Positions 8,345 to 35,659 of a stretch of DNA of 64,000 nt are shown piece by piece. Positions within the stretch are counted from its first letter, which is position 1. Every line of letters starts with the position of its first letter. The stretch lies in contig JAHBZQ010000001.1 in the NCBI GenBank assembly GCA_019635355.1, positions 4,257,220-4,321,219 of the forward strand. Direction: 5' to 3'. The notes below the pieces were generated by a model. It saw only the letters and a program-made list of their open reading frames with translations. It was not told the origin of the DNA and ran no database searches. Source of the DNA: Rhizobacter sp. (GTDB taxonomy: Bacteria; Pseudomonadota; Gammaproteobacteria; Burkholderiales; Burkholderiaceae_C). Made by a program: the position numbers and the translations under genes.

Positions 8345-9139
8345 ATGAGAAAGAACCGCCTGCGCACGATGTGGAAGGCCGGTGAAGCGGCCGTCAACGG
8401 CTGGCTCGCCATCCCCAACAGCTTCTCCGCCGAGACCATGGCCCACCAGGGCTGGGACACGCTCACCATCGACCTGCAGCACGGCGTGGTCGACTACCAG
8501 GCGATGGTCGGCATGCTGCAAGCCATCTCCACCACGCCCACCGTGCCGGTGGTGCGCGTGCCCTGGCTGGAGCCGGGCATCCTGATGAAGACGCTCGATG
8601 CGGGCGCCTACGGCGTGATCTGCCCGATGGTGAGCACGCGCGAAGACGCGCAGAAGCTCGTGGCCTACACCAGCTATGCACCCAAGGGCACGCGCAGCTT
8701 CGGGCCGATCCGCGCGCTGCTGTACGGCGGCGCCGACTACCCGCAGCACGCCAACGACACCATCGTGCGCTTCGCGATGATCGAAACGGCTCAGGCGCTC
8801 GACAACCTCGACGACATCCTGAGCGTGGAAGGTCTCGACGCGATCTACATCGGCCCGTCGGACCTGTCGCTCGCGCTCGGCTGCAAGCCCACCTTCGACG
8901 AGGTCGACCCGAAGGCCGCGCAGGCCATCGACCACATCCTCGCGCGGGCCAAGCACCACGGCGTCGTCGCCGGCATCCACAACGGCGGGCCCGAGGCGGC
9001 GCTGGCGCGCATTGCCAAGGGTTTCCAGTTCGTGACGGTGGGCTCCGATGCACGGCTGATGGCGGCCGGCGCGCAAGCCGTGGTCGGCAAGATGAAGGCG
9101 GGCCGCACGGCTGGCGATGCCGGCTCGGGCTCCTACTGA
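8345..9139 (+). CDS. HpcH/HpaI-family class II aldolase (GarL-like 5-keto-4-deoxy-aldarate aldolase by context)
   Basis: DLQHG, VRVP, YAPKGTRSFG, MIET and IGPSDLS motifs. Confidence 0.88.
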   Translation: MRKNRLRTMWKAGEAAVNGWLAIPNSFSAETMAHQGWDTLTIDLQHGVVDYQAMVGMLQAISTTPTVPVVRVPWLEPGILMKTLDAGAYGVICPMVSTREDAQKLVAYTSYAPKGTRSFGPIRALLYGGADYPQHANDTIVRFAMIETAQALDNLDDILSVEGLDAIYIGPSDLSLALGCKPTFDEVDPKAAQAIDHILARAKHHGVVAGIHNGGPEAALARIAKGFQFVTVGSDARLMAAGAQAVVGKMKAGRTAGDAGSGSY

Positions 9140-22280: not shown

Positions 22281-22469
22281 GCGGGCCCGCCGCGTTCTGC
22301 CAGCCGGCACCGGCGGCGGGCGCTGAGGCCGCCGTCGCAGCTGGGCGTGCCAATCTCGTCACGCTTTGCGCGGCTTTGCGACCGATGCGGCGGCCATTCG
22401 ACGTGGTGCCGCTCAAGGCCGCCGCCGGCCGACCCGATATCCCCGTTGAACTCCTACGCGCCCCGCGCC

Positions 22470-25199
22470 ATGTTTCAACGCGTCCATGCCCACTGGCGGG
22501 CCCTGCCTGCCACCACCCGCCTCTACGTCACCGCTGCCAGCGTGGCCGGGGCGTTGCTGGCGGCGTTGGGTGGCGGCACCTGGTGGATGCTGGAGCGGGC
22601 CTACACCACCAGCGTGCAGCTCGCCTACAGCGAGGTCGATGCCGCCTCGCAGCGCCTGAGCGACCGGGTGCAGCGCCTCTTCGACCAGCTCAACCAGACC
22701 GCGTCGCTCGTCAAGCACTACCAGGAAAACAGCGGCGGCGCCGACCTGGTGGCGATGGAGAAGAACGGCCTCCTGGTGCCGGCCGGCCGCCTGTCGATGG
22801 CGCTTGCCGACCAGACCGGCCAGGTGCTCGGCATGACCGAATCGCAAGGCGCGGTGCCGGCCGGGGCCAAGCACGTGGCCGACCGCCAGCACTTCCAGGG
22901 CTCGTGGACGCGCACCGACCTCGCCATCGCCCAGCCGGTGTATTCCGAGGTGCTCAAGCGCTGGCTCGTGCCGGGCGGCAAGCAGCTGCAGCACCCCAAC
23001 GGCAAGTTTGCCGGCGCCGTGCTGCTGGCCTTCGATGCCGCGCTGCTGACCGAAGGCTTCACCGTGAACGACAGCCCGGGCAACGCCGTGGGCGTGGTCG
23101 GGGCCGACGGCATCTTCCGCTCGCGCCGCAGCGACGACCGCCAGAGCGCCGGTGACCAGGTCGATGGCGACGAGATCGTGCGCGCCGTCAACCGCGCCGA
23201 CCGCAGCATGGTGCCCACCGCCAGCACCATCGACGGCATCGTGCGCTTCAGGTCCGTCACGCCGATCCCGGGCCATGACCTCTACGCGGTCGTGGCCGTG
23301 CCGGCGTCGACGTCGATGGCGGGCTACTACGCGCTGCGAACCAAGACACTCGCCACGGCCGCATTCGGGGCGCTGCTGATCCTCTTCATGACCTGGGTGC
23401 TGTCGCGCCAGTCGCTGCGCCTGCGCCGCACCGTGATGCAGAAGGAGCAGGCCGAGCTGCGCGTGTACCACGAGAAGGAAATGCTCGAGGTGACGCTGCG
23501 CTCCATCGTCGACGGCGTGGCCACCACCAACCACTTGGGCCGCATCACCTACCTCAACCCCGCCGCCGAGGCGATGACGGGTTGGCCCGCCGCCCAGGCC
23601 ATCGGCAAACCGGTGTCGGAGGTGATCTGCCTCACCCACACCCACACCCGCGAGCGGCTCGGCCTCGGCCTCAACGAATTCGCCCGCCCGGGCGCGCAGC
23701 CGCGCCCCGCGCGTGACTCGGTGCTGGTGCAGCGCGATGGCGCGCACCGCTCCATCGAGGACTCGGCTGCGCCCATCCTTAACCGCAACGGCATGGCGGT
23801 CGGCGCGGTGCTGGTGCTGCACGACGTGAGCCCGGCCAAGAAGCTCGCCGCCGAGATGTCGTACCAGGCGAGCCACGACCTGCTCACCGGCCTGCTCAAC
23901 CGCGCCGCCTTCGAGGTGCGCCTCGACGCCGCCATCACCACCCAAGACCTCGATGAAACCGGCGTGGTCATGTTCCTCGACCTCGACCAGTTCAAGGTGG
24001 TGAACGACACCTGCGGCCACGTCGCGGGCGACCAGCTCCTGAAGCAGGTCACCGCCCTCTTGATGCAGGAGATCCGCAAGCAGGATACGCTCGCCCGCCT
24101 CGGCGGCGACGAGTTTGCCGTGCTGCTGGAAGCCTGCCCGATGGAGCCCGCGCTGCGCGTGGCCGAAGCCATGCGCCGGCGCATCAGCGAGCTGCAGTTC
24201 TCATGGGAAGGCCGCTCCTTCCAGCTCACGGTGAGCGTGGGCGTGGTGCCCTTCAAGGCCCACCAGTACACCCGCTCCGACCTGCTGCGCGTGGCCGACT
24301 CGTCGTGCTACGTGGCCAAGGAAGCCGGCCGCAACCGCGTGCACGTCTACGACGAAGCCGACACGGCGGTGGCCACCCGCAACGACGAGCTCGACTGGTA
24401 CTCGCGCCTGCAGAAGGCGCTCACCGACGACCGCTTCGTGCTCTACGCGCAGCGCATCGCCTCCATCCAGGAAGGTGCCGGTGGCCACGAGAGCGTGGAG
24501 GTGCTGATCCGCTTGCGCGACGACGAAGGCAAGATCGTCGCCCCCATCGCCTTCATCCCCGCCGCTGAACGCTACGGCCTCATGCCGCAGATCGACCGCT
24601 GGGTGATCTCGAAGGCGTTGGCCATGCACGCCGGCTTCGCGCGCCACTACACGCTGCCGGCGCGTTTCTCGATCAACCTCTCGGGCGCTTCGATGGCCGA
24701 CCCGACGCTCGTCGACTTCGTGCGCGAGCAGCTGGCCACCCACCGTGTCTCGCCCGAGCTGATCTGCTTCGAGATCACCGAGACCGCGGCCGTTGCCAGC
24801 TTCGACGTGGCGGTGCAGATGATCAACCGCCTGCGCGAGCTGGGCTGCCGCTTCGCGCTCGACGACTTCGGCGCGGGCATGTCCTCGTTCACCTACTTGA
24901 AGCGCCTGCCGGTCGACTACGTGAAGATCGACGGTGCCTTCGTGAAGGACATGGCCAAGGACGCCGTTGACTTCGCGATGGTCGAGGCCATCCACAACGT
25001 CGCCCACCGCATGGGCCTGCGCACGGTGGCCGAGTTCGTGCAGAACGACGTCACCATCGAGATGCTGCGCGGCCTGGGCGTCGACTATGTGCAGGGCTAC
25101 GGCGTCGAGAAGCCGCGCCCGCTCGATGACGCCACGCGCAGTGAGCCGCCGCCGTCGTTCGTCAAGCCGATGGCGCTGCCCAAGCTGATGGCCGCGTGA
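22470..25199 (+). CDS. Membrane Cache-PAS-GGDEF-EAL c-di-GMP enzyme
   Basis: Two TM segments flanking a Cache-like domain; PAS; HDLLTGLLNR; RKQDTLARLGGDEF with intact RxxD I-site; EVLIR, DDFGAGMSS and QGY EAL motifs. Confidence 0.95.
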   Translation: MFQRVHAHWRALPATTRLYVTAASVAGALLAALGGGTWWMLERAYTTSVQLAYSEVDAASQRLSDRVQRLFDQLNQTASLVKHYQENSGGADLVAMEKNGLLVPAGRLSMALADQTGQVLGMTESQGAVPAGAKHVADRQHFQGSWTRTDLAIAQPVYSEVLKRWLVPGGKQLQHPNGKFAGAVLLAFDAALLTEGFTVNDSPGNAVGVVGADGIFRSRRSDDRQSAGDQVDGDEIVRAVNRADRSMVPTASTIDGIVRFRSVTPIPGHDLYAVVAVPASTSMAGYYALRTKTLATAAFGALLILFMTWVLSRQSLRLRRTVMQKEQAELRVYHEKEMLEVTLRSIVDGVATTNHLGRITYLNPAAEAMTGWPAAQAIGKPVSEVICLTHTHTRERLGLGLNEFARPGAQPRPARDSVLVQRDGAHRSIEDSAAPILNRNGMAVGAVLVLHDVSPAKKLAAEMSYQASHDLLTGLLNRAAFEVRLDAAITTQDLDETGVVMFLDLDQFKVVNDTCGHVAGDQLLKQVTALLMQEIRKQDTLARLGGDEFAVLLEACPMEPALRVAEAMRRRISELQFSWEGRSFQLTVSVGVVPFKAHQYTRSDLLRVADSSCYVAKEAGRNRVHVYDEADTAVATRNDELDWYSRLQKALTDDRFVLYAQRIASIQEGAGGHESVEVLIRLRDDEGKIVAPIAFIPAAERYGLMPQIDRWVISKALAMHAGFARHYTLPARFSINLSGASMADPTLVDFVREQLATHRVSPELICFEITETAAVASFDVAVQMINRLRELGCRFALDDFGAGMSSFTYLKRLPVDYVKIDGAFVKDMAKDAVDFAMVEAIHNVAHRMGLRTVAEFVQNDVTIEMLRGLGVDYVQGYGVEKPRPLDDATRSEPPPSFVKPMALPKLMAA

Positions 25200-27185
25200 T
25201 CAGGGTCGCCTGATCGGCTGCCGCACCTCGGGTGCCGGCGACACCAGCGCGGCCTGCACCGCCGCATGCACCGCCGCGGTGGCCACCGGCTTCACCAGGT
25301 GCGCCACGAACCCCGCCTCGCTCGACTGCTTCATGTCGCCCTGCGTGCCATAGCCGCTGAGCGCGATCACCGGCAGCCGGCCGTGCAGCTGGCGGCCGAT
25401 CTCGATGCCGCTGCCGTCGGGCAGGCCGAGGTCGGTCACCACCACGTCGAAGCCGTCCTGCGAGTTGGCCAGTGTCATCGCTTCATCGCAGCTGTAGGCG
25501 TGCGTCACCCGGTAGCCGAGGTCATGCAGCGACAGGCCGAGCGCATCGGCCGCGTCGCGGTTGTCTTCCACCAGCAGCACGTGCACCGAGGGCGGTGGCC
25601 GTGCACTGCCGTCGTGGGCCTCGGGCGCCTCGGCCTGCACGCTGCTCGCCTGCGTGGTGGGCAGGCGCAAGGTGAACACGGCGCCGCGGTCGCGCCCGTC
25701 GCTGTGCGCGCTCAATGAGCCGTGGTGCCGCGCCACCAGCCCGTGCGCGATCGCGAGACCGAGCCCCAGGCCACCGAAGCGGCGCGAGACGTCGGCGTCG
25801 GCCTGCTCGAACGCGAGGAAGATGCGTGGCAGCGCGTCGGCGTGGATGCCGATGCCGGTGTCGGTGCAGCTCACCTCCAGCTCGCTGCCGACGAGCCGCG
25901 AGCGCACCTCCACCCGCCCGCCGCTCGGGGTGAACTTCACCGCATTGCGCACGATGTTCCACAGCACCTGCTGGATGCGCGCCTCGTCGCCCTGCACCAC
26001 GCTTTCGGGTGCGTCGAGGTGCAGGTCGAGTGTGAGGCCGCTGCGCTGCACGTCGCCTTCCAGCATCTCGGCCACCGCGTGGATCAGCTTGTGCACGTCG
26101 ACCGGCTGCAGCCGCAGGTTGACCTTGCCGGCGCCGATGGCAGTGAGGTCGAGCAGGTCGTCGATCAGGCGCGCTTCCAGGGCCACGTTGCGCCGGATCA
26201 TGGGCAAGAGGTGCGCGAGCTTGTCGGGCACGGTCGCGTTGCGCTCCAGCAGCTGCGCCGCCGCGGCAATCGGCGCGAGCGGCGTGCGCAGCTCGTGCGA
26301 GAGCACCGCGAGGAAACGGTCTTTCGCGCGGTTGGCGCGCTCGGCTTCCTCTTTCGCTTCGCGCAGCGCCTGCGCGTCGCGCCAGGCCGGCGTGGCGTCG
26401 TGCACCAGCATCGAGAAGCCGGTGTGATCGCCCTGCGTGTTGTAGAGCGCGGTGACCACGCCTTCGCCGCGCATGCGGCTGCCGTCGGCCCGCACCAGCC
26501 AGCGGTCGTTCTGCGCGTGGCCGAGCGCGAAGGCGGTTTCCAGCTCGCGGCGCCACACGCCGTGTTCGCGGTCTTCGGGGGTGAAGACGAGGTCGATCGA
26601 GCGGCCAAGCGTGTCTTCGCGGCGGTGGCCGAAGATGGCCTGCGCGGCGAGGTTCCACGAGCGCACGATGCCCGCGCCATCGAGCAGGATCACCGCGTAG
26701 TTGCGCAGCGAGTCCACCACGCGGGCGTAGAGGGCGTCGGCGTCGCGCAGCTGGGCCTCCACCGCTTCGCGCGCCTCGCGCAGGCGCACTTCTTCCAGTG
26801 CCCGGTCGATGGCCACCGGCAGGCGCGACAGGCGGTTCTTGATCACGTAGTCGGTCGCGCCGCGCTTGAGCATGTCGACCGCGTTGTCTTCGCCGATCAC
26901 GCCCGAGACGAAGATGAAGGGGATGTGCGGATCCCGCTGCCGCACCAGATCGAGCGCCTCGCCGCCGGAATACCGCGGCAGCTGGTAGTCGGACAGGATC
27001 ACGTCGTAGCGGTAGCGGTCGAGCGAGGCCACGAAGTTCGGCTCGTCGTCGACCCAGGTCACGCGCACGTGGGGGTAGGCGCGCTTGAGCCACTCCTGCA
27101 GGATCTCGGCGTCGAAGGCCGAGTCTTCCAGCAGCAGCACGCTCAGGCGGCGGTCGTGCGGCGCGGTGGGGTGAGGGTCACTCAT
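25200..27185 (-). CDS. Hybrid histidine kinase REC-PAS-HisKA-HATPase-REC
   Basis: Start MSDPHP at 27185; LLLEDS/SDYQLP REC; HELRTPL H-box; NAVKFT, DTGIGI, GGLGLGL; C-terminal LLVEDN..TDLGLP REC. Confidence 0.95.
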   Translation of the reverse strand: MSDPHPTAPHDRRLSVLLLEDSAFDAEILQEWLKRAYPHVRVTWVDDEPNFVASLDRYRYDVILSDYQLPRYSGGEALDLVRQRDPHIPFIFVSGVIGEDNAVDMLKRGATDYVIKNRLSRLPVAIDRALEEVRLREAREAVEAQLRDADALYARVVDSLRNYAVILLDGAGIVRSWNLAAQAIFGHRREDTLGRSIDLVFTPEDREHGVWRRELETAFALGHAQNDRWLVRADGSRMRGEGVVTALYNTQGDHTGFSMLVHDATPAWRDAQALREAKEEAERANRAKDRFLAVLSHELRTPLAPIAAAAQLLERNATVPDKLAHLLPMIRRNVALEARLIDDLLDLTAIGAGKVNLRLQPVDVHKLIHAVAEMLEGDVQRSGLTLDLHLDAPESVVQGDEARIQQVLWNIVRNAVKFTPSGGRVEVRSRLVGSELEVSCTDTGIGIHADALPRIFLAFEQADADVSRRFGGLGLGLAIAHGLVARHHGSLSAHSDGRDRGAVFTLRLPTTQASSVQAEAPEAHDGSARPPPSVHVLLVEDNRDAADALGLSLHDLGYRVTHAYSCDEAMTLANSQDGFDVVVTDLGLPDGSGIEIGRQLHGRLPVIALSGYGTQGDMKQSSEAGFVAHLVKPVATAAVHAAVQAALVSPAPEVRQPIRRP

Positions 27186-27636
27186 TCCGGCGGCCCACCT
27201 TGAGCGAGCCTGGTGGCGGTTCATTGAGGACCGCCCAGAACACACCCAGGTCGGCGATGGCGGAGACGAACTGCTTGAACTCCACCGGCTTCACCACATA
27301 CGCGTTCACACCCAGCTCGTAGCTGCGCAACACGTCGGACTCTTCATGCGAGGAGGTGAGCATCACCACCGGCACGCTGCGCAGTCCCTCGGTGGCGCGC
27401 ACCGTCTTGAGCACTTCCAGGCCGTTCACCTTGGGCAGCTTGAGGTCGAGCAGGATCACCGCCGGGTTGCCTTCGGAGCGCTCGCGGTGGTGGCCTTCGC
27501 GGTTGAGGTAGTCGAGCGCCTCGGCGCCGTCGCGCACCACGATGACCTCGTTGGCCAGCTGGCTGCGTTCGAGGGCCACCAGGGTCAGTTCGAGGTCGCG
27601 TGGATCGTCTTCGACGAGGAGGATGGGCTTGAGCAT
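27178..27636 (-). CDS. Single-domain response regulator (phytochrome-associated Rcp1/BRR type)
   Basis: LLVEDD, LLDLKLPKVNG, LTSS and NAYVVKP; lies directly downstream of bphP. Confidence 0.93.
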   Translation of the reverse strand: MLKPILLVEDDPRDLELTLVALERSQLANEVIVVRDGAEALDYLNREGHHRERSEGNPAVILLDLKLPKVNGLEVLKTVRATEGLRSVPVVMLTSSHEESDVLRSYELGVNAYVVKPVEFKQFVSAIADLGVFWAVLNEPPPGSLKVGRRNE

Positions 27637-27642
27637 GAAGAC

Positions 27643-29865
27643 CTAACGGGCAGTGGAAGAGGAGAGCAGCACCTCGCGGCGCGGCAGGAGCAGGGTGAAG
27701 GTGGCGCCGCGGTCGGGTGCACCTTCGGCGCTGACGGTGCCTCCGTGGCGCTCGACGATGCGGCGCACGCTCGCGAGGCCGATGCCGGTGCCTTCGAACT
27801 CCTCGACCTGGTGCAGCCGCTGGAAGACGCCGAAGAGCTTGTTCACGTACTTCATGTCGAAGCCCACGCCGTTGTCGATGACCGCGAGGCCATCGCCTTC
27901 CGGGGTGCTCACGGCGCGCAGGGTGATCTCGGGCGCCTCGCGCGTGCGGCTGTACTTGACGGCGTTGCCAACCAGGTTGCGCACGGCCACCTGCATCAGC
28001 AGTGCGTCGCCCCAGAGCGTGGCGAAGGGGCCTTCGACGTGCCAGCGGATGCGCCCCGACTGCGGCGCGTCGAATTCGCGCACGAGGTCGCCGACCAGCG
28101 CGCCGAGGTTGATGTCGACCCGGCGCAGCGCCGAGCGGCCCATGCGCGAGAACTCGAGCAGCGCGTCGACCAGCTCGCCCGCGTAGGCCGCCGCATCCTT
28201 CACATGCGCCAGGTAGCGCTTGGAGCGGTCTCCGAGCTGTTCGCCGTCGAGCACCAGGTCGACGTAACCCGCGATGTGGCGCATCGGCGCGCGCAGGTCG
28301 TGCGACACGGTGTACGAGAACGCTTCGAGTTCCTTGTTGACGCGGCCGAGCTCGGTGGCCACTTCGGCCAGCTCTTCCGCTCGGCGCAGCACGATGCCGA
28401 TCAGCGCCTGCCGCAGCTCGAGCGCGGCACCCAGCTCACCGGGCGTCCAGTCGAGCGAGCGGCCGCGCAGCTCTTCGCGCCAGGTGGCGAAGCTGCGGCG
28501 CGGGTGCAGGCGGCCGTCGCCATTCGGGTCGACGTTCTTGCGTGGGTCTCCGGCCCAGTGGATCTCCTGCACCACCTCGGGCCGGAACCACAGGATGTAC
28601 TGCCGGTGCACCTGCGAGATCGAGAGGGCGAGCAGGCCGGAGGCGATGCGGGTGTGGCCCGCCATCGGCGGGCACAGCGCGGGCAGCCGCGCGGTGTGGA
28701 AGGCGTCGGTGGTGCGCGGCCCGAGCCATTCGACGAGCTGTTGCAGGCTGGCGTCGTCGGGCACGTCGCCCACCGTCCAGCACTCGTCGTTGAGCACCAC
28801 CGCCGCACCGCTCGCGCGCGCGATGCGCAGCAGCAGGCCCGGGTGGTCGACCAGGCGCTGCAGCGTGGCGTCGCTGTCGGCCAGGTGTGCCACCAGCGCA
28901 AGCGTGAGCTGGCGCAACTCGGCCTCTTGCGAGATGCGGGCGTTGTCTTCCTTGGCCTCGATCTGCAGCGAGAGCAGCTGGCCCAGGTGCTCGCAGGCCA
29001 TGCGGGTGGCGTAGTCGAGCTGGCGCGGGTTGTGGTCGTGCACCGAGATCAGCCCCCACAGCTCGCCGCGCACCATGATCGAGACCGAGCTCGACGCGAG
29101 CGTGCCCATGTTGCGCATGTATTCCAGGTGCACCGGCGAGACGCTGCGCAGCTGCAGCAGCGACATGTCGAGCGGCTTGTCGGCCCAGGCGGGTGAGACG
29201 ACCCGCACCGGCACCGGGGTGTAGTTCGCGTCGGCGATGAGGCGGAAGCGGTTGACCTTGTACAGCTCGCGCGCCTGCGGCGGGATGTCGGAGCCGGGAA
29301 AGTGGTGGCCGAGGTAGGAGTCGTAGCCGGCGTCGCGCGCCTCGGCCAGCACGGCACCGTGGCCCTCGGCATCGAACGAGTAGACAAGGCAGCGGCCGAA
29401 GCCCGTGAGCTGCTTCATCGACATCGCGGCCAGCTGGCACAGCGCCTCGACCGTCTGCGCCTCCTGCATGCGCGGCAGCAGCTGGCGGGTGAGCACATAG
29501 ATGGGCGCGCGTGCGCCCGGCTCGTCGGCCTGCGCTTCGAGTTCGACGTGGAGCAGGCCGTCGCGCAGATGGGCGCTCGCATGCAAATGGCGCCCGCCCA
29601 CGCGCATGGAGCCGAGCGATGACGAGCCGTCATTGCGCGAGAGGTCGGCGAGCTCGACGTCCAGGTCGGCGAACACGTCTTCGATGCGGTGGGTGAGGTC
29701 GGGCGAGTCACCCAGCAGTTGTGTCCAGTTCTCGCTGTAGGCGACGAGGGCGCGGGAACGCGCATCGAGCGAAACCATCCAGCCGTGTGGCTGGATCGCC
29801 CCCGGCACGCGGATCGGCTCACGCGCGCAGTGCGCGAGGTCGAGCGAGGTGATGGACTCGCTCAT
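27643..29865 (-). CDS. bphP: Bacteriophytochrome PAS-GAF-PHY-HisKA-HATPase
   Basis: True start MSESITSLDLAHCAREPIRVPGAIQPHG with the biliverdin-binding Cys; SDIP motif; SPVHLEYMRNM; PRRSF tongue; HDLRAP H-box. Confidence 0.96.
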   Translation of the reverse strand: MSESITSLDLAHCAREPIRVPGAIQPHGWMVSLDARSRALVAYSENWTQLLGDSPDLTHRIEDVFADLDVELADLSRNDGSSSLGSMRVGGRHLHASAHLRDGLLHVELEAQADEPGARAPIYVLTRQLLPRMQEAQTVEALCQLAAMSMKQLTGFGRCLVYSFDAEGHGAVLAEARDAGYDSYLGHHFPGSDIPPQARELYKVNRFRLIADANYTPVPVRVVSPAWADKPLDMSLLQLRSVSPVHLEYMRNMGTLASSSVSIMVRGELWGLISVHDHNPRQLDYATRMACEHLGQLLSLQIEAKEDNARISQEAELRQLTLALVAHLADSDATLQRLVDHPGLLLRIARASGAAVVLNDECWTVGDVPDDASLQQLVEWLGPRTTDAFHTARLPALCPPMAGHTRIASGLLALSISQVHRQYILWFRPEVVQEIHWAGDPRKNVDPNGDGRLHPRRSFATWREELRGRSLDWTPGELGAALELRQALIGIVLRRAEELAEVATELGRVNKELEAFSYTVSHDLRAPMRHIAGYVDLVLDGEQLGDRSKRYLAHVKDAAAYAGELVDALLEFSRMGRSALRRVDINLGALVGDLVREFDAPQSGRIRWHVEGPFATLWGDALLMQVAVRNLVGNAVKYSRTREAPEITLRAVSTPEGDGLAVIDNGVGFDMKYVNKLFGVFQRLHQVEEFEGTGIGLASVRRIVERHGGTVSAEGAPDRGATFTLLLPRREVLLSSSTAR

Positions 29866-30512
29866 GCCGGCAGCCCGTCGAACACCTCGCACAAGGCGGC
29901 GAAGGTGCGCTGCGCGCTGTGGCAGGCGCTGCGGGCCGCGGCGTCGTCGGCGCCGAGTTCGTGGGCGATGACCTCTCGGAACTCGCGCCACATCGCCGCG
30001 GTGGCCGGCCCGTGGCCGTGGAAATAGCGGGCGCCGTGGGAGGGCGTGAGGCCGAGGTGCTGCTTGAGCAGCGGGGTGATGACCTGCCCGCCGAGGGCGG
30101 AGCCTTCGATCACGTACATCGAGCCGAGCGCTCCGGCCACATCGGCCATCGGGATGCTGCGCACGGCACGCTCGGCGGCGTGGGCCAGGTGCGGGGTATG
30201 CGGCCCGCCGAGCTGGCGCAGGTCGTCGGCGGCAAAGCCACTGCGCTTGCGCTTGGCACACCAGTCGCGCAGATGGGCGGGCAGGGCGGCGGCCACACGC
30301 GGCTCCCAGCGCCAGAGGAATTCATGGAAGCCCGCCATGACGCCCGCATAACGGGCTGCGCTCATGGGGTGCGTGAGCCGCAGCACCGACTCGATGCGCG
30401 TGTGCTCGGTGCGGGTCTTCTCTCGCAACTCCTTCAACAGCCCTGCTTCAATGCCCAATGAGGCGGCTCCCAATCGAGAACAAAAGTGCGCTGATTCTGG
30501 AGGAGCAGCCAT
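29862..30512 (-). CDS. bphO: Biliverdin-producing heme oxygenase
   Basis: LREKTRTEHTRIE (proximal His) and LGSMYVIEGSALGGQVI; ATGA overlap with bphP; exact start uncertain. Confidence 0.92.
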   Translation of the reverse strand: MAAPPESAHFCSRLGAASLGIEAGLLKELREKTRTEHTRIESVLRLTHPMSAARYAGVMAGFHEFLWRWEPRVAAALPAHLRDWCAKRKRSGFAADDLRQLGGPHTPHLAHAAERAVRSIPMADVAGALGSMYVIEGSALGGQVITPLLKQHLGLTPSHGARYFHGHGPATAAMWREFREVIAHELGADDAAARSACHSAQRTFAALCEVFDGLPA

Positions 30513-30627
30513 GCCCCTGCGCGGCAGTCCAGCTTGCAAAAATTACCGATGGGTAGGTGCTTTCCCACAGCGGAATCGGGTGTTGCAGACTGGCGCGCGC
30601 GCAGGCGGGCCTCTTAGCCTTGCGTGC

Positions 30628-31485
30628 ATGGCAACCGCATCGCGATCACTGTGGAAAGGCGCCATCAGCTTCGGGCTGGTGCACATCCCCGTGAGCCTGC
30701 ATTCGGCGTCCACCGAAAGCGGGGTCGACTTCGACTGGCTCGACAAACGCAGCATGGACCCGGTCGGCTACAAGCGCATCAACAAGCGCACCGGCCGTGA
30801 AATCACCAAGGAAAACATCGTCAAGGGCATCGAGTACGAGAACGAGAAGTACGTGCTGCTCAGCGACGAGGAAATCGAGGCGGTGTACCCGCGCTCCACC
30901 CAGGCCATCGAGATCGAGGCCTTCGTCTCGATGAGCGAGATCCCGTTCGTTTACCTCGACCGGCCCTATTACCTGGCGCCTGTGGCGAAGGGCCAGAAGG
31001 TCTATGCGCTGCTGCGCGAGGCGCTGGTGCGCAGCGAGCGCGTGGGCCTGGCGCGGGTGGTGATCCACACCAAGCAGCACCTGGCAGCGCTCGTGCCGGC
31101 CGGGCCGGCGCTGGTGCTCAACCTCTTGCGCTGGAGCGACGAGATCCGCACCTGGGAAGACCTGGCGTTGCCAAAGGAAGGCGCGAAGGCCAACCACCTC
31201 ACCGAGCGTGAGCTCGAGATGGCCGGCCAGCTGATCGACGACATGACGGTGGCCTTCGACCCTTCGCAGTTCTCCGACCGCTTCAAGGAGCAGGTGATGG
31301 CGCTCGTGGAGCGCAAGGTCGAAGCCGGCGAGACGGAGACGGTGCTCGAGCCCGAGGAGCAACCCCTGCCGAAGGATGCCAAGGGCGCCGACGTGGTCGA
31401 CCTCACGGCCCTGCTGCAGGAGAGCCTGAAGGGCCGTGGCGAGCACAAGCACAAGGCCGCTCCGAGAAAGAAGAAGGCCGCCTGA
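30628..31485 (+). CDS. ku: Non-homologous end-joining protein Ku
   Basis: WKGAISFGLVHIPV, IVKGIEYE, IEIEAFV, YLDRPYYL and VVDLTALLQESL; basic tail. Confidence 0.96.
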   Translation: MATASRSLWKGAISFGLVHIPVSLHSASTESGVDFDWLDKRSMDPVGYKRINKRTGREITKENIVKGIEYENEKYVLLSDEEIEAVYPRSTQAIEIEAFVSMSEIPFVYLDRPYYLAPVAKGQKVYALLREALVRSERVGLARVVIHTKQHLAALVPAGPALVLNLLRWSDEIRTWEDLALPKEGAKANHLTERELEMAGQLIDDMTVAFDPSQFSDRFKEQVMALVERKVEAGETETVLEPEEQPLPKDAKGADVVDLTALLQESLKGRGEHKHKAAPRKKKAA

Positions 31486-31494
31486 GGACGCACC

Positions 31495-33993
31495 ATGGGC
31501 ACCAGCAGCCTCGCCACCTACCAGCGCAAGCGCAACTTCGGCGCCACGCCGGAACCGGCAGGCGAAGTGGTGGCCTCGGGCGACGAGCTCAGCTTCGTCA
31601 TCCAGAAGCACGCGGCACGACGGCTGCATTACGACTTCCGGCTCGAACTCGATGGCACGCTCAAAAGCTGGGCCGTGCCCAAGGGCCCGAGCCTCGACCC
31701 GCATGACAAGCGCATGGCGGTGCAGGTGGAAGACCACCCGCTGTCGTATGGCGGCTTCGAGGGCACGATCCCCGAAGGCCACTACGGCGCCGGCTCGGTG
31801 ATCGTGTGGGACCGCGGCACCTGGGTGCCGCTTGGCGACCCGCGCAAGGGCTACCGCGAGGGCAAGCTCAAGTTCGAGCTCAAGGGCGAGAAGCTGCACG
31901 GTGGCTTCACGCTCGTGCGCATGAAGTCGCGTGAGAACGAGCGACAGGTGCCGTGGCTGCTCATCAAGGAGCACGACGACGAAGCGCGGTCGGCGAGCGA
32001 GTTCGACGTGATCGAGGCGCTGCCCGACAGCGTGCTGGCCGGCAGGAAGAAGCGCCCCGTCGCGGCCAAGGCACCGGCGAAGTCGCCCGCCAAAGCTCGG
32101 CGCAACGCGAAAGCCGAGCTGCCGCTCTCGCTCACGCCGCAGCTGGCCACGCTGGTCGACGACATCCCGCCCGGCGACGACTGGCTCTACGAGATCAAGT
32201 TCGACGGCTACCGCGTCGTCACGCGCATCGATGGCGACGACGTGCGCTGCTTCACCCGCAAAGGGCACGACTGGTCGCACCGATTGCCCACGCTCGTGAA
32301 GGCGATCCGTGCGCTTGGCATCGGCTGGGGGTGGCTCGACGGCGAGATCGTCGTCGCAGGCCCCAAGGGCACGCCCGATTTCCAGCTGCTGCAGAACGCG
32401 TTCGATGCGCAGCGCACGCAAGACATCCAGTACTACGTGTTCGACCTGCCATTCCACGACGGCGAAGACCTGCGCGAGCGGCCCTTGAGCGAGCGGCGCG
32501 AGCGCTTGCAATCGCTGCTGGCAGGACACACGGGCGGCACAGTGCAGTTCAGCGCGTCGTTCGACGCCGACCCGCGCGAGCTGCTCGCCTCGGCTCGCGA
32601 CGCCGGCCTCGAAGGGCTGATCGGCAAGCGTGCGTCGGCCACCTATCACTCGCGCCGCTCGGCCGACTGGGTCAAGCTCAAGCTCGGCCAGCGGCAGGAG
32701 TTCGTGATCGGCGGCTTCACCGACCCCAAGGGTTCGCGCGCGGGCATCGGCGCGTTGCTGATCGGCGTGCACGATGCCGAGGGGAAGCTGCGCTACGCCG
32801 GCAACGTGGGCACCGGGTTCGACGACAAGACGCTGCTCGCGCTGCGCCAGCAGCTCGACGAGATCGAGACGACGACGAGCCCCTACACCGATGGGCCCGC
32901 ACGCGTCGGCACGGTCAAGCTCGTGAAGCCGCATTGGGTGAAGCCCAAGCTCATCGCCGAGGTGGCGTTTGCCGAGTGGACGAAGAGCGGGCATGTGCGC
33001 CAGGCGGTCTTCCACGGCCTGCGCAGCGACAAGCCGCCGGAGCGCATCACGAAGGAAGTCGCCAGGCACATGGAGAAAGCACCTGCCAACAAGGCGCTGC
33101 CGAAAGACTTCCGCGTGACGCACCCGGAGCGTGTGGTCGACAAGCGCACCGGCGTCACCAAGGGCGAGCTCATCGCGTATTGCGCGCAAGTGGCCGAGCT
33201 GATGCTGCCGCACCTGAAGCAGCGGCCGGTCTCGCTGCTGCGCGCGCCCGATGGCGTGGACGGGCAGTTCTTCTTCCAGAAGCACGCCGAGAAGAAGAGC
33301 TTTCCGAACATCGAGGTCCTCGACCGGGCGTTGTACCCGTCGCACGACCCGTTGCTCGCGATCGGCACGCCGCTCGCGCTGCTGTCGGCCGCGCAGATGA
33401 ACGTGCTGGAGTTCCACACCTGGAACGCCACCACGCGCGCAATGGACCGGCCCGACCGCATGGTGTTCGACCTCGACCCCGGCGAGGGCGTGGGCTGGCC
33501 GCAGGTGCTGGAAGCTGCGCAGCTGGTGCATGCGCTGCTGGAGGAGATCGGCCTCGTGGGCTTCCTGAAGACGAGCGGCGGCAAGGGCCTGCACGTGGTG
33601 GTGCCGCTCGCGCCCAAGTACGACTGGGACACGGTGAAAGACTTCTCGCAGGCCATCGTGGCGCACATGGCCTCGGTGATCCCCGATCGCTTCGTTGCGA
33701 AGAGCGGGCCGAAGAATCGCGTCGGCCGCATCTTCATCGACTACCTGCGCAACGGGCTCGGCGCGACCACGGTGTGTGCGTGGTCGGCCCGTGCGCGGCC
33801 GGGGCTGGGCGTCTCGGTGCCGGTGACGTGGGATGAGCTCGCGGGCCTGAAGAGCGGCGCGCAGTGGACGGTTGAGAACGTGGCCGAGCGACTGGCCGTC
33901 GGCAACACCCCGTGGGCCGACTACGCGAAGACGAAGCAGAGCCTGGTGAAGCCGATGAAGGCGATGGGCTTCGATCCGAAGGCGGTGCGATGA
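31495..33993 (+). CDS. ligD: ATP-dependent DNA ligase D (phosphoesterase-ligase-polymerase)
   Basis: YQRKRNF, QKHAARRLHYDFRLE (PE); EIKFDGYR, EGLIGKR (LIG); THPERV, DLDPG, KTSGGKGLH, IDYLRN (POL). Confidence 0.97.
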   Translation: MGTSSLATYQRKRNFGATPEPAGEVVASGDELSFVIQKHAARRLHYDFRLELDGTLKSWAVPKGPSLDPHDKRMAVQVEDHPLSYGGFEGTIPEGHYGAGSVIVWDRGTWVPLGDPRKGYREGKLKFELKGEKLHGGFTLVRMKSRENERQVPWLLIKEHDDEARSASEFDVIEALPDSVLAGRKKRPVAAKAPAKSPAKARRNAKAELPLSLTPQLATLVDDIPPGDDWLYEIKFDGYRVVTRIDGDDVRCFTRKGHDWSHRLPTLVKAIRALGIGWGWLDGEIVVAGPKGTPDFQLLQNAFDAQRTQDIQYYVFDLPFHDGEDLRERPLSERRERLQSLLAGHTGGTVQFSASFDADPRELLASARDAGLEGLIGKRASATYHSRRSADWVKLKLGQRQEFVIGGFTDPKGSRAGIGALLIGVHDAEGKLRYAGNVGTGFDDKTLLALRQQLDEIETTTSPYTDGPARVGTVKLVKPHWVKPKLIAEVAFAEWTKSGHVRQAVFHGLRSDKPPERITKEVARHMEKAPANKALPKDFRVTHPERVVDKRTGVTKGELIAYCAQVAELMLPHLKQRPVSLLRAPDGVDGQFFFQKHAEKKSFPNIEVLDRALYPSHDPLLAIGTPLALLSAAQMNVLEFHTWNATTRAMDRPDRMVFDLDPGEGVGWPQVLEAAQLVHALLEEIGLVGFLKTSGGKGLHVVVPLAPKYDWDTVKDFSQAIVAHMASVIPDRFVAKSGPKNRVGRIFIDYLRNGLGATTVCAWSARARPGLGVSVPVTWDELAGLKSGAQWTVENVAERLAVGNTPWADYAKTKQSLVKPMKAMGFDPKAVR

Positions 33994-35039
33994 GGGCTGT
34001 GGTGAATCCCTTCGAATCCGAGGCACCGCCGGGGCTGCGCTACGTGAGCGACACCATGCCCGGCATACGCCGGCTGCGCGACGGCGACGGCTTCCGCTAC
34101 CGCGATGCCAAGGGCCGGCTGCTGCGCAACGCAAAGGAGCTGCAGCGCATCCGCAAGCTCGCCATCCCGCCCGCCTACGAAGAGGTGTGGATCTGCCCGC
34201 TGCCCGAAGGCCACCTGCAGGCCACCGGCCGCGACGCGCGTGGCCGGAAGCAGTACCGCTACCACCCCGACTGGCGCGAAGCGCGCGACGCACACAAGTT
34301 CGAGCGCATGCGCGAGTTCGGCCAGGCGCTGCCGCGCATCCGTGCCAAGGTGAAGCGCGATCTGGCGGCACCGGTGGGCAGCCGCGCATCGGTGCTCGCG
34401 GCGCTGGTGCGACTGCTCGACACCACGCTCGTGCGCATCGGCAACGACGAATACGCGCGCGAGAACGGCTCCTTCGGCCTCACCACCTTGCGCAACAAGC
34501 ACGCGGCGGTGAAAGGCGCGACGCTGCACTTGCGCTTTCGCGGCAAGAGTGGCGTGTGGCACGAGCTCACGCTCGAAGACCCGCAGGTCGCGCGCATCGT
34601 GCGCGCCTGCCAGGCGATGCCGGGCCAGGAACTCTTCCAGTACGAAGACGACAAGGGCGAGACACGCTGCGTCGGCTCGGCCGACGTCAACGAATACATC
34701 AAGGTCTTGAGCGGCGCCGACTTCACCGCGAAGGACTTCCGCACCTGGCACGCGAGCGTGCATGCGCTCGCGCGGCTGTGCGCTTTGCCGGTCACCGGGC
34801 CGGTGAGCCGAAAGCGGGCGAACGAGGTCTTGCGGGAAGTGGCCGGACTGCTGGGCAACACGCTCGCGGTGTGCCGCAAGTCGTATGTGCACCCGGGGGT
34901 GATGGCGGTCGCGACGCAGCGCGGCGTCGAGGCCCTGGCGGGTGGGGCGTTGAAACGCTGCCGGGGCCTGACGGTGGCCGAGTGCCGGCTGCTGGCCTTC
35001 CTGTCAGCGCAACCGGGGCCCGTGGAGGAGCCCCGGTAG
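33990..35039 (+). CDS. Bacterial (poxvirus-like) DNA topoisomerase IB
   Basis: IPPAYEEVWIC, GRDARGRKQYRYH, RIGNDEY, FRGKSG, KDFRTW and GNTLAVCRKSYVHP (catalytic Tyr); ATG overlaps the ligD TGA. Confidence 0.95.
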   Translation: MRAVVNPFESEAPPGLRYVSDTMPGIRRLRDGDGFRYRDAKGRLLRNAKELQRIRKLAIPPAYEEVWICPLPEGHLQATGRDARGRKQYRYHPDWREARDAHKFERMREFGQALPRIRAKVKRDLAAPVGSRASVLAALVRLLDTTLVRIGNDEYARENGSFGLTTLRNKHAAVKGATLHLRFRGKSGVWHELTLEDPQVARIVRACQAMPGQELFQYEDDKGETRCVGSADVNEYIKVLSGADFTAKDFRTWHASVHALARLCALPVTGPVSRKRANEVLREVAGLLGNTLAVCRKSYVHPGVMAVATQRGVEALAGGALKRCRGLTVAECRLLAFLSAQPGPVEEPR

Positions 35040-35044
35040 GCCGA

Positions 35045-35320
35045 TCAGGCGGCGGCCGTCGTGGTGGACGAGGAGGAGGGCGACAGCTTGGCGCGTGCCG
35101 CTTCTTCGGCCTCCTTGCAGGACGGGGCGCACACATGTTGCGCCTTGCCCAGCAGGCGGCGGGTCTTCAGGGTGTTGCGGGGGCGATGCTTGCCGCACAG
35201 GAAGCACGACATGGTCCCGGCCTGGAAGTCACCCGCACTCGCGAACGGCGAGCCGCCTTCCTTGACCTTGTAACGCAGCCCATCGGCCTGGATCTTGGTT
35301 TTGACGACGTCTTTTGCCAA
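35045..35320 (-). CDS. Small hypothetical Cys-rich protein (possible Zn ribbon), 91 aa
   Basis: TTG start at 35320 with GAGGAAG RBS; SCFLCGKHR...HVCAPSCKE. Confidence 0.75.
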   Translation of the reverse strand: MAKDVVKTKIQADGLRYKVKEGGSPFASAGDFQAGTMSCFLCGKHRPRNTLKTRRLLGKAQHVCAPSCKEAEEAARAKLSPSSSSTTTAAA

Positions 35321-35659
35321 AGTAACTTCCTCAATTGGTTGAAAACGCAAACCCTGTATTGTCCTGCGATCTCGGTCGACGCGCACGCCTAGGGTGAAAC
35401 AAAGCATCCGCGCAGCGCCGAGAAGATTGGATTGTCCAGGCTTGACGCCCAGTATGCAAACGCCAACTCACCGGGAAGGCGAGGCCAGGCACTGGCGATA
35501 ACCCTTAGATCCACGGCGCCGGCATGGTTCCGCAGGCGGGCCCGCCCGGAGCGCGCCGCCGTCTTTGACGCCCGCAAGGGCCCGTTTGCAGGCGTTTCAG
35601 GGGTTCCCTTGGAGAGCCGATTGCCGCTACACCTGGAGCCGAGACGACATGGAGGCGCC

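Follow-up and report, generated by a model that had tools for sequence, protein, structure and literature searches.

Gene content of the locus

The subject of this report is a stretch of 64,000 nucleotides from Rhizobacter sp. (contig JAHBZQ010000001.1, positions 4,257,220 to 4,321,219), called the window below, in which a light-sensing operon and a DNA-repair operon are arranged head-to-head. The first encodes the heme oxygenase BphO, the bacteriophytochrome BphP, a response regulator and a hybrid histidine kinase. The second encodes Ku and LigD, the proteins of bacterial non-homologous end joining (NHEJ), and a topoisomerase. The best account of the locus, to which we assign a probability of about 0.55, is that the four phytochrome genes are a cassette inserted beside a resident ku operon, that the two operons have separate promoters, and that phytochrome and Ku genes pair recurrently, but modestly, elsewhere. 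The genes are the following (coordinates are those of the window).

22347..25199, plus strand: PAS-GGDEF-EAL gene, 950 amino acids, the left flank of the insertion (Pfam EAL, GGDEF and PAS; synteny)
25200..27185, minus strand: hybrid histidine kinase, REC-PAS-HisKA-HATPase_c-REC, the last gene of the cassette (Pfam)
27178..27636, minus strand: single-domain response regulator (REC only), 152 amino acids (Pfam PF00072)
27643..29865, minus strand: BphP bacteriophytochrome histidine kinase, PAS_2-GAF-PHY-HisKA-HATPase_c (Pfam)
29862..30458, minus strand: BphO heme oxygenase, with a revised TTG start at 30458 (Pfam PF01126; start conserved in six species)
30459..30627: divergent control region, most likely 169 bp, with the bphO leader and promoter on one side and the ku upstream element and putative core promoter on the other (alignments)
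30628..31485, plus strand: ku (TIGR02772, 297.9 bits against a cut-off of 150)
31495..33993, plus strand: ligD, with phosphoesterase, ligase and primase-polymerase domains (Pfam and NCBIfam)
33996..35039 (approximate start), plus strand: bacterial topoisomerase IB (topIB), the third gene of the ku-ligD string (Pfam Topoisom_I and Top1B_N_bact)

The Pfam and NCBIfam profiles bear out the gene identities and orientations that the original prediction had read from the letters of the DNA. The head-to-head position of the bphO and ku operons, also part of that prediction, is confirmed and is conserved in six species. All three profiles of the BphP photosensory core (PF08446, PF01590 and PF00360) score above their cut-offs, and Cys13, within LAHCAREPIRVPGAIQPHG, occupies the position of the N-terminal biliverdin-attachment cysteine. 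The protein starts at MSESITS, which is residue 133 of a longer open reading frame (ORF). Its ATG overlaps the stop codon of bphO (ATGA), and bphO is positioned directly upstream. The hybrid kinase probably starts at an ATG near 27185, overlapping the stop of the response regulator gene. BphP contains the sole PHY domain of the genome (5.34 Mb in 4 contigs). No DNA-binding domain was found by Pfam in the cassette proteins, which thus have no DNA-binding output of their own. LigD is matched by TIGR02776 (702.8 bits) as well as by PF13298, PF01068, PF04679 and PF21686. Its gene is separated from ku by 9 nt, and topIB is kept 3' of ligD in congeners and outgroups, as seen from synteny. A second Ku, 35% identical, is encoded 273 kb away.

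Origin of the arrangement

Twenty-seven genomes of the genus were compared. The head-to-head arrangement is present in 6 of these, the window genome and five congeners with Ku proteins 87-98% identical (G013, G024, G014, G004 and G003), in all of which the kinase, response regulator, bphP and bphO genes are divergent from ku-ligD. These six species are called clade a. Sister lineages have the same flanks and no cassette. In eight cassette-free congeners with Ku proteins 71-82% identical (clade b, loci L092-L099), the PAS-GGDEF-EAL gene is followed directly by ku-ligD-topIB, and the flanks match those of clade a on both sides.

In a tree of LigD, clade a has 100/100 support and is nested among cassette-free lineages, of which G009 and G020 diverge before it. 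A single insertion is therefore preferred over three or more losses. An attempt to polarize the event by outgroup synteny failed because the outgroups lack the EAL-ku adjacency, and the LigD tree was used instead. On the left side, the stop codon of the EAL gene (TGA, 25197-25199) abuts that of the kinase (TCA, 25200-25202). These convergent stops (TGATCA, 25197-25202) have no intergenic bases between them and no terminator-like hairpin. The right junction is positioned a few bases before a conserved element of ku, called Block B below. A sixth congener, G019, carries the cassette 750 kb from its own ku.

Anatomy of the divergent control region

The original prediction placed the start of bphO at about 30512 and hence gave the gap a length of 115 bp. 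This is not supported by the orthologs, however. The ATG at 30512 is missing from three of five of them, whereas a TTG at 30458, preceded at 8-9 nt by a GGAG or GGGAG Shine-Dalgarno sequence, is conserved in all six species and agrees with the start of the Pfam domain of BphO. Because the TTG is the conserved start, the non-coding gap most likely spans 30459-30627, or 169 bp. The bphO leader (30459-30545, minus strand) has a conserved run, CTCC(T)CC, with the potential to pair with the GGAG sequence. A stem sequestering the Shine-Dalgarno sequence was nevertheless rejected, as its consensus fold is weak (-8 kcal/mol) and the covariation term is unfavorable.

Alignment of the six gaps of clade a reveals two nearly invariant blocks surrounded by variable sequence. 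The elements of the region are the following.

30529..30547: Block A, CCAGCTTGCAAAAATTACC, which on the minus strand reads GGTAATTTTTGCAAGCTGG; candidate promoter or operator of bphO, conserved in six species
30553..30593, plus strand: Block B, GTAGGTGCTTTCCCACAGCGGAATCGGGTGTTGCAGACTGG, 41 nt, the ku upstream element, nearly invariant in clade a
30615..30620, plus strand: -10-like hexamer TAGCCT, 7 nt before the ku ATG, aligned with the corresponding boxes of clade b

The two blocks differ in their distribution. Block A is confined to the cassette-bearing clade, and the sequence before ku in clade b lacks it. Each of the eight cassette-free congeners has Block B and a -10-like box ahead of its ku gene, with unchanged spacing, and its Block B begins 7-28 nt past the stop codon of the EAL gene. 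Since it is found upstream of ku where bphO is absent, Block B is, judged from these alignments, ku's own ancestral element.

In clade b the box (TAGGAT, TACGAT or TAGCAT) is followed by a leader of about 30 nt with a GAGG Shine-Dalgarno sequence. In clade a this leader is missing, TAGCCT is positioned 7 nt from the ATG, and there is no Shine-Dalgarno sequence; the simplest reading is that the ku mRNA of clade a is probably leaderless. The deletion of the leader, seen when 30594-30630 is compared with L092-L099, coincides phylogenetically with the insertion of the cassette. The -10 region of ku reads CCTAGGAT or CCTACGAT in clade b, with the C at -13 that is typical of RpoS promoters (type C(-13)-TAnnnT), and CGTAGCCT or CTTAGCCT in clade a, where this C is lacking. 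The genome encodes RpoS (417.6 bits against a cut-off of 378.7).

On the bphO side there are two candidate -10 sequences on the minus strand, the AT-rich TAATTT (30545-30540) and TACCCA (30555-30550). With either choice the core of Block B would be in, or adjoining, the core promoter of bphO. Indeed, any bphO promoter must, on this layout, lie in or overlap the gap sequence left by the ku element. If TAATTT is used, the TTCCCACA core of Block B, located between the two putative transcription starts, would take the -35 position of bphO. The two control regions are thus probably back-to-back and overlap physically. The original prediction held that the two promoters must be shared or overlapping. 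The tight packing and the probable overlap stand, but a single ancient shared unit does not, because the insertion is derived and the ku element is older. The 7-bp insertion found between Blocks A and B in G003 also argues against a rigid shared element.

No Rfam family matched the control region. An inverted repeat between Block B (30556-30570) and codons 8-12 of ku (30649-30663) was set aside as a leader structure, because Block B precedes the putative start of ku transcription, and the universal LWKG motif dictates the sequence of the coding arm.

Block B appears to belong to a wider pattern in the genome. The bipartite motif consists of GTAGGnGnaTTCCCACA with CCTAnGnT at +61. It occurs exactly at two other promoters, C1:808206(+) and C1:2167720(-), and in weaker or partial form at two or three more, including C1:622935(+) and C1:636978(+). 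The TAGCCT box of ku has the same +61 offset from GTAGG as its counterparts at two other promoters. This suggests a small regulon with a putative common regulator. The genes behind the exact copies are a small ORF, itself located before a copper P-type ATPase gene, and the gene of a HAMP-array protein; those behind the weaker copies encode an alpha/beta hydrolase and a sigma-54-dependent response regulator. Block B is not, however, a general 'ku box', as 73 ku loci from other genera do not have it in front of the gene. In other genera it was likewise not seen before bphO.

Phytochrome and Ku genes as neighbors

The frequency of phytochrome-Ku pairs was determined in two independent samples, an even draw of 401 genomes from the family and another 401 genomes from the whole phylum. 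A PHY domain is present in 85 genomes of the family sample and Ku in 122; the two occur together in 55, compared to 26 expected (odds ratio 6.8). The phylum sample supplied 44 further genomes with both. A count of adjacent phytochrome and ku/ligD genes against chance had been proposed as a check with the original prediction, and its result is positive. With the window genome excluded, pairs within 7 kb occur in 5 of 98 genomes with both genes, representing four further lineages, against 0.52 genomes expected under uniform gene placement (P ~0.002). The replicate (phylum) sample alone gives P ~0.02. The distances between PHY and Ku genes on shared contigs are bimodal: six are 1.8-6.5 kb, one is 19 kb, and the next is 114 kb. 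The pairs are the following.

G161 and G283 (one genus; family sample): SRAP, kinase-response regulator-bphP-bphO, umuC (G283 only), aldolase, lysR, ku
G292 (family sample): bphP, GspA/ExeA-like ATPase, ligD, ku, all on one strand
G731 (another family; phylum sample): ku, ligD, small acidic ORF, 330 bp, bphO-bphP-response regulator-kinase, on one strand
G614 (phylum sample): bphP, large catalase, ku
G707 (phylum sample): a weaker case, with PHY and Ku 19 kb apart

The four lineages within 7 kb have four different gene arrangements. In G614 (L170, 7619-13312) the bphP gene, the gene of the large KatE-type catalase and ku are co-directional. The Ku match of this genome contains one in-frame TAA and may represent a pseudogene or a sequencing error. 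In G283 (L102, ~8490-8570) a perfect LexA box, CTGTATATGTACACAG, is located a few bases upstream of umuC, which is divergent from bphO, and the gene for SRAP, an SOS-response peptidase, is just past the cassette kinase. This is a second DNA-damage neighborhood of the same cassette. The umuC gene is missing in G161, a congener of G283.

As a control, 3,626 low-copy proteins of the genome were compared with 63 phytochrome loci from 37 genera. Ku is one of about six non-signaling groups that recur near phytochromes in at least two other genera; the others include PrkA/YeaH, TspO, PDH-E1 with Lrp, and a YdeN-like hydrolase. Genes for PrkA/YeaH stress kinases (L135, L148) and for the tetrapyrrole-binding TspO (L132, L142) are within 10 kb of phytochrome genes, each in two genera. 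Furthermore, in three genomes of one genus (loci L121, L157 and L160) a gene for an ATP-dependent DNA ligase with a WKYDG motif is positioned about 7-9 kb from bphO-bphP-response regulator. This protein, recognized as a ligase by its sequence only, is homologous to the product of C1:4746348-4748108 in the window genome (G000). In all, phytochromes and Ku tend to co-occur and to become neighbors, an effect that is real but modest.

The four-gene cassette itself is found in many genera, at the other site in G019 and in about 20 further contexts. About 21 other cassette contexts showed no repair gene (Ku, LigD, UmuC, SRAP or TopIB) beside them, and none of these five was present within ~10 kb at 60 additional phytochrome loci from the family. 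When the Pfam domains of 61 genes around 17 other cassettes were tallied, only signaling domains recurred. A second replicate, with the highly conserved response regulator as the probe, located another six cassette contexts; these are in other families, and Ku is absent from all of them. The hybrid kinase is 82-95% identical to its orthologs in the five congeners and 45-59% identical to those of cassettes in other genera. Between genera and families the response regulators share 76-89% identity, compared to 46-63% for their BphP partners. Constraint this strong is unusual in a stand-alone REC protein and points to a downstream partner that is itself conserved.

Relation to known systems

The bphO-bphP part of the cassette resembles D. 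radiodurans DrBphP/BphR and P. aeruginosa bphOP, in which a heme oxygenase gene is translationally coupled to that of a PAS_2-GAF-PHY kinase with a biliverdin cysteine. As in canonical bphO-bphP(-bphR) operons, the gene of a single-domain response regulator is directly downstream of the phytochrome gene. Unlike these operons, the cassette contains a fourth gene, that of the REC-PAS-HK-REC hybrid kinase, found as a part of it in many genera; it lacks a DNA-binding output, and in this clade it is head-to-head with ku-ligD. The repair operon has the order known from the ku-ligD operons of Mycobacterium, Pseudomonas and Sinorhizobium, a Ku homolog followed by a three-domain LigD. It differs from them in having topoisomerase IB as its third gene, a genus-specific element of 41 nt, an apparently leaderless ku, and no LexA box.

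In Alphaproteobacteria, LOV photoreceptor kinases feed the PhyR/EcfG general stress response, whose regulon includes ku; this would couple light to NHEJ through general stress regulation. The resemblance to the present locus is limited to the path from light through a stress regulator to NHEJ by way of single-domain response regulators and partner kinases without a DNA-binding domain. The photoreceptor class and the sigma system are different, and no PhyR/EcfG-type module is evident here.

In D. radiodurans, BphP and its response regulator affect survival of DNA damage in a light-dependent manner (Jung et al. 2021, PMC8363230). The effect is confined to chronic mitomycin C treatment and is not seen with UV or gamma irradiation (PMC8363230). 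Unlike the locus described here, the D. radiodurans system involves no Ku or LigD, and no gene adjacency was shown for it (PMC8363230). No other experimental link between a BphP and a DNA-damage phenotype was found in the literature, nor was a paper connecting bacteriophytochromes with NHEJ or LigD.

Interpretation of the locus

In the preferred account, a self-contained light-sensing cassette of about 5.3 kb and four genes (25200 to ~30552) was inserted into the short gap that separated the EAL gene from the resident ku-ligD-topIB string. The insertion is placed in the ancestor of the six clade a species, a subclade of the genus. The two operons would then be transcribed divergently from separate, back-to-back promoters. 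Transcription of ku would depend on the pre-existing Block B and the TAGCCT box, probably without a leader, and that of bphO on cassette-borne sequence (Block A), with a core promoter abutting or overlapping Block B. The pairing is neither ancient nor purely random, and may reflect co-selection or co-expression of accessory genes that serve non-growing cells exposed to sun and drying. The comparisons show the gene content, the insertion, the ancestry of Block B and the enrichment, whereas the promoter assignments, the leaderless start of ku and any co-regulation are inferences.

Several results weigh against this account. The putative promoters find no match to the sigma-70 consensus in 24900-35600, and no LexA box (CTGT-N8-ACAG) is present in 20441-46085, even at one mismatch. 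Readings of the conserved blocks as sigma-54, RpoH or ECF-type elements were rejected by eye because of unsuitable spacings. Gene placement is taken to be uniform in the chance model, but accessory genes cluster, so that the true enrichment is below about 8-fold; moreover, the 7-kb threshold was set after the first cases had been seen. The cassette is next to ku in only about 3 of 24 contexts. Finally, among the Ku loci of other species, the 80 closest that were retrieved (61-78% identical, viewed with 8-kb flanks) all lack bphO and a true bphP in the vicinity of ku.

The last two results are also those expected if the arrangement were a historical accident, the cassette having landed in a permissive gap before ku and the other pairings being due to the clustering of accessory genes in flexible regions. 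One derived insertion suffices to explain the local arrangement, and several unrelated low-copy genes (among them those of PDH E1 with Lrp and of the YdeN-like hydrolase) are likewise found repeatedly in the neighborhood of phytochromes, in two genera. Pure accident does not easily yield four further lineages with different gene orders where half a genome is expected, the absence of distances between 19 and 114 kb, or the strong co-occurrence of PHY and Ku. Furthermore, the companions elsewhere are again damage or stress genes: SRAP, the LexA-boxed umuC and katE. Accident alone is doubtful, with a real chance of being correct nonetheless.

The nature of these companions bears on a possibility already raised in the original prediction, that both operons are simply members of a stationary-phase or general-stress gene neighborhood. 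A stress or dormancy neighborhood fits because katE, SRAP and the SOS-boxed umuC are among the companions and rpoS is present. It is at least as good a fit as light control, given the bphP-katE-ku lineage, the RpoS encoded here and the stress induction of NHEJ genes elsewhere. In S. meliloti these genes are induced by stress and in stationary phase, partly via the general stress sigma factor RpoE2 (PMC6379672). The bphOP genes of P. aeruginosa are reported to be RpoS-dependent, according to a citation in PMC6932827.

Direct light control of ku is possible. Red and far-red light would be a proxy for sun and drying and would prime double-strand-break repair, with the BphP phosphorelay (the REC protein, the hybrid kinase and a putative DNA-binding output) raising or gating ku-ligD-topIB or the NHEJ capacity. 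Counting the present clade, bphP has been juxtaposed with ku or ligD independently in five lineages, twice in the form of the same cassette type, which adjoins ku-ligD in G731 and is near ku in G161 and G283. One protein bound to Block B, at the would-be -35 of bphO, could affect both promoters, and in D. radiodurans light-activated BphP raises survival of mitomycin C (PMC8363230). Nevertheless, the cassette encodes no DNA-binding domain, the ku element is older than the cassette and has an unchanged core in relatives that lack it, and most cassettes have unrelated neighbors. In G731 the cassette is downstream of ku-ligD and has an upstream region of 330 bp of its own, and the literature contains no paper that we could find linking a phytochrome to NHEJ. 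Light-anticipatory control of this kind, the possibility raised in the original prediction, is unlikely; the interpretation given there is supported in part, by the divergent, closely packed control regions and by the adjacency count. The same low probability attaches to the broader proposal that cassette signaling controls the expression or activity of end joining by Ku and LigD and that the bphP-ku neighborhoods of at least five lineages record a general, undescribed output of bacteriophytochromes in non-photosynthetic bacteria.

It is very unlikely that one regulator at Block B, such as a stationary-phase or stress activator, co-induces ku and bphO in response to a signal other than light, since, although Block B is between the putative starts, its motif suggests a small regulon and the genome has RpoS, the G003 insertion would shift the bphO promoter relative to Block B and yet the arrangement persists, Block B precedes neither bphO in other genera nor ku outside the genus, and the RpoS-typical C at -13 is found in clade b, not in clade a.

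Significance

The targets of bacteriophytochromes in non-photosynthetic bacteria are largely unknown (PLoS Biology, PMC6932827), and the signals that induce bacterial NHEJ are poorly known outside Alphaproteobacteria. A neighborhood of both systems that has evolved repeatedly and is supported statistically provides a concrete hypothesis that is cheap to test. The genus supplies a natural control, namely sister species that have identical flanks and the same ku promoter element and lack the cassette. Even without coupling, the locus cleanly illustrates how a signaling cassette can insert just upstream of a resident promoter, at a distance of a few bases, and leave it in place. If the coupling is true, it would mean that double-strand-break repair in non-growing cells is primed by light.

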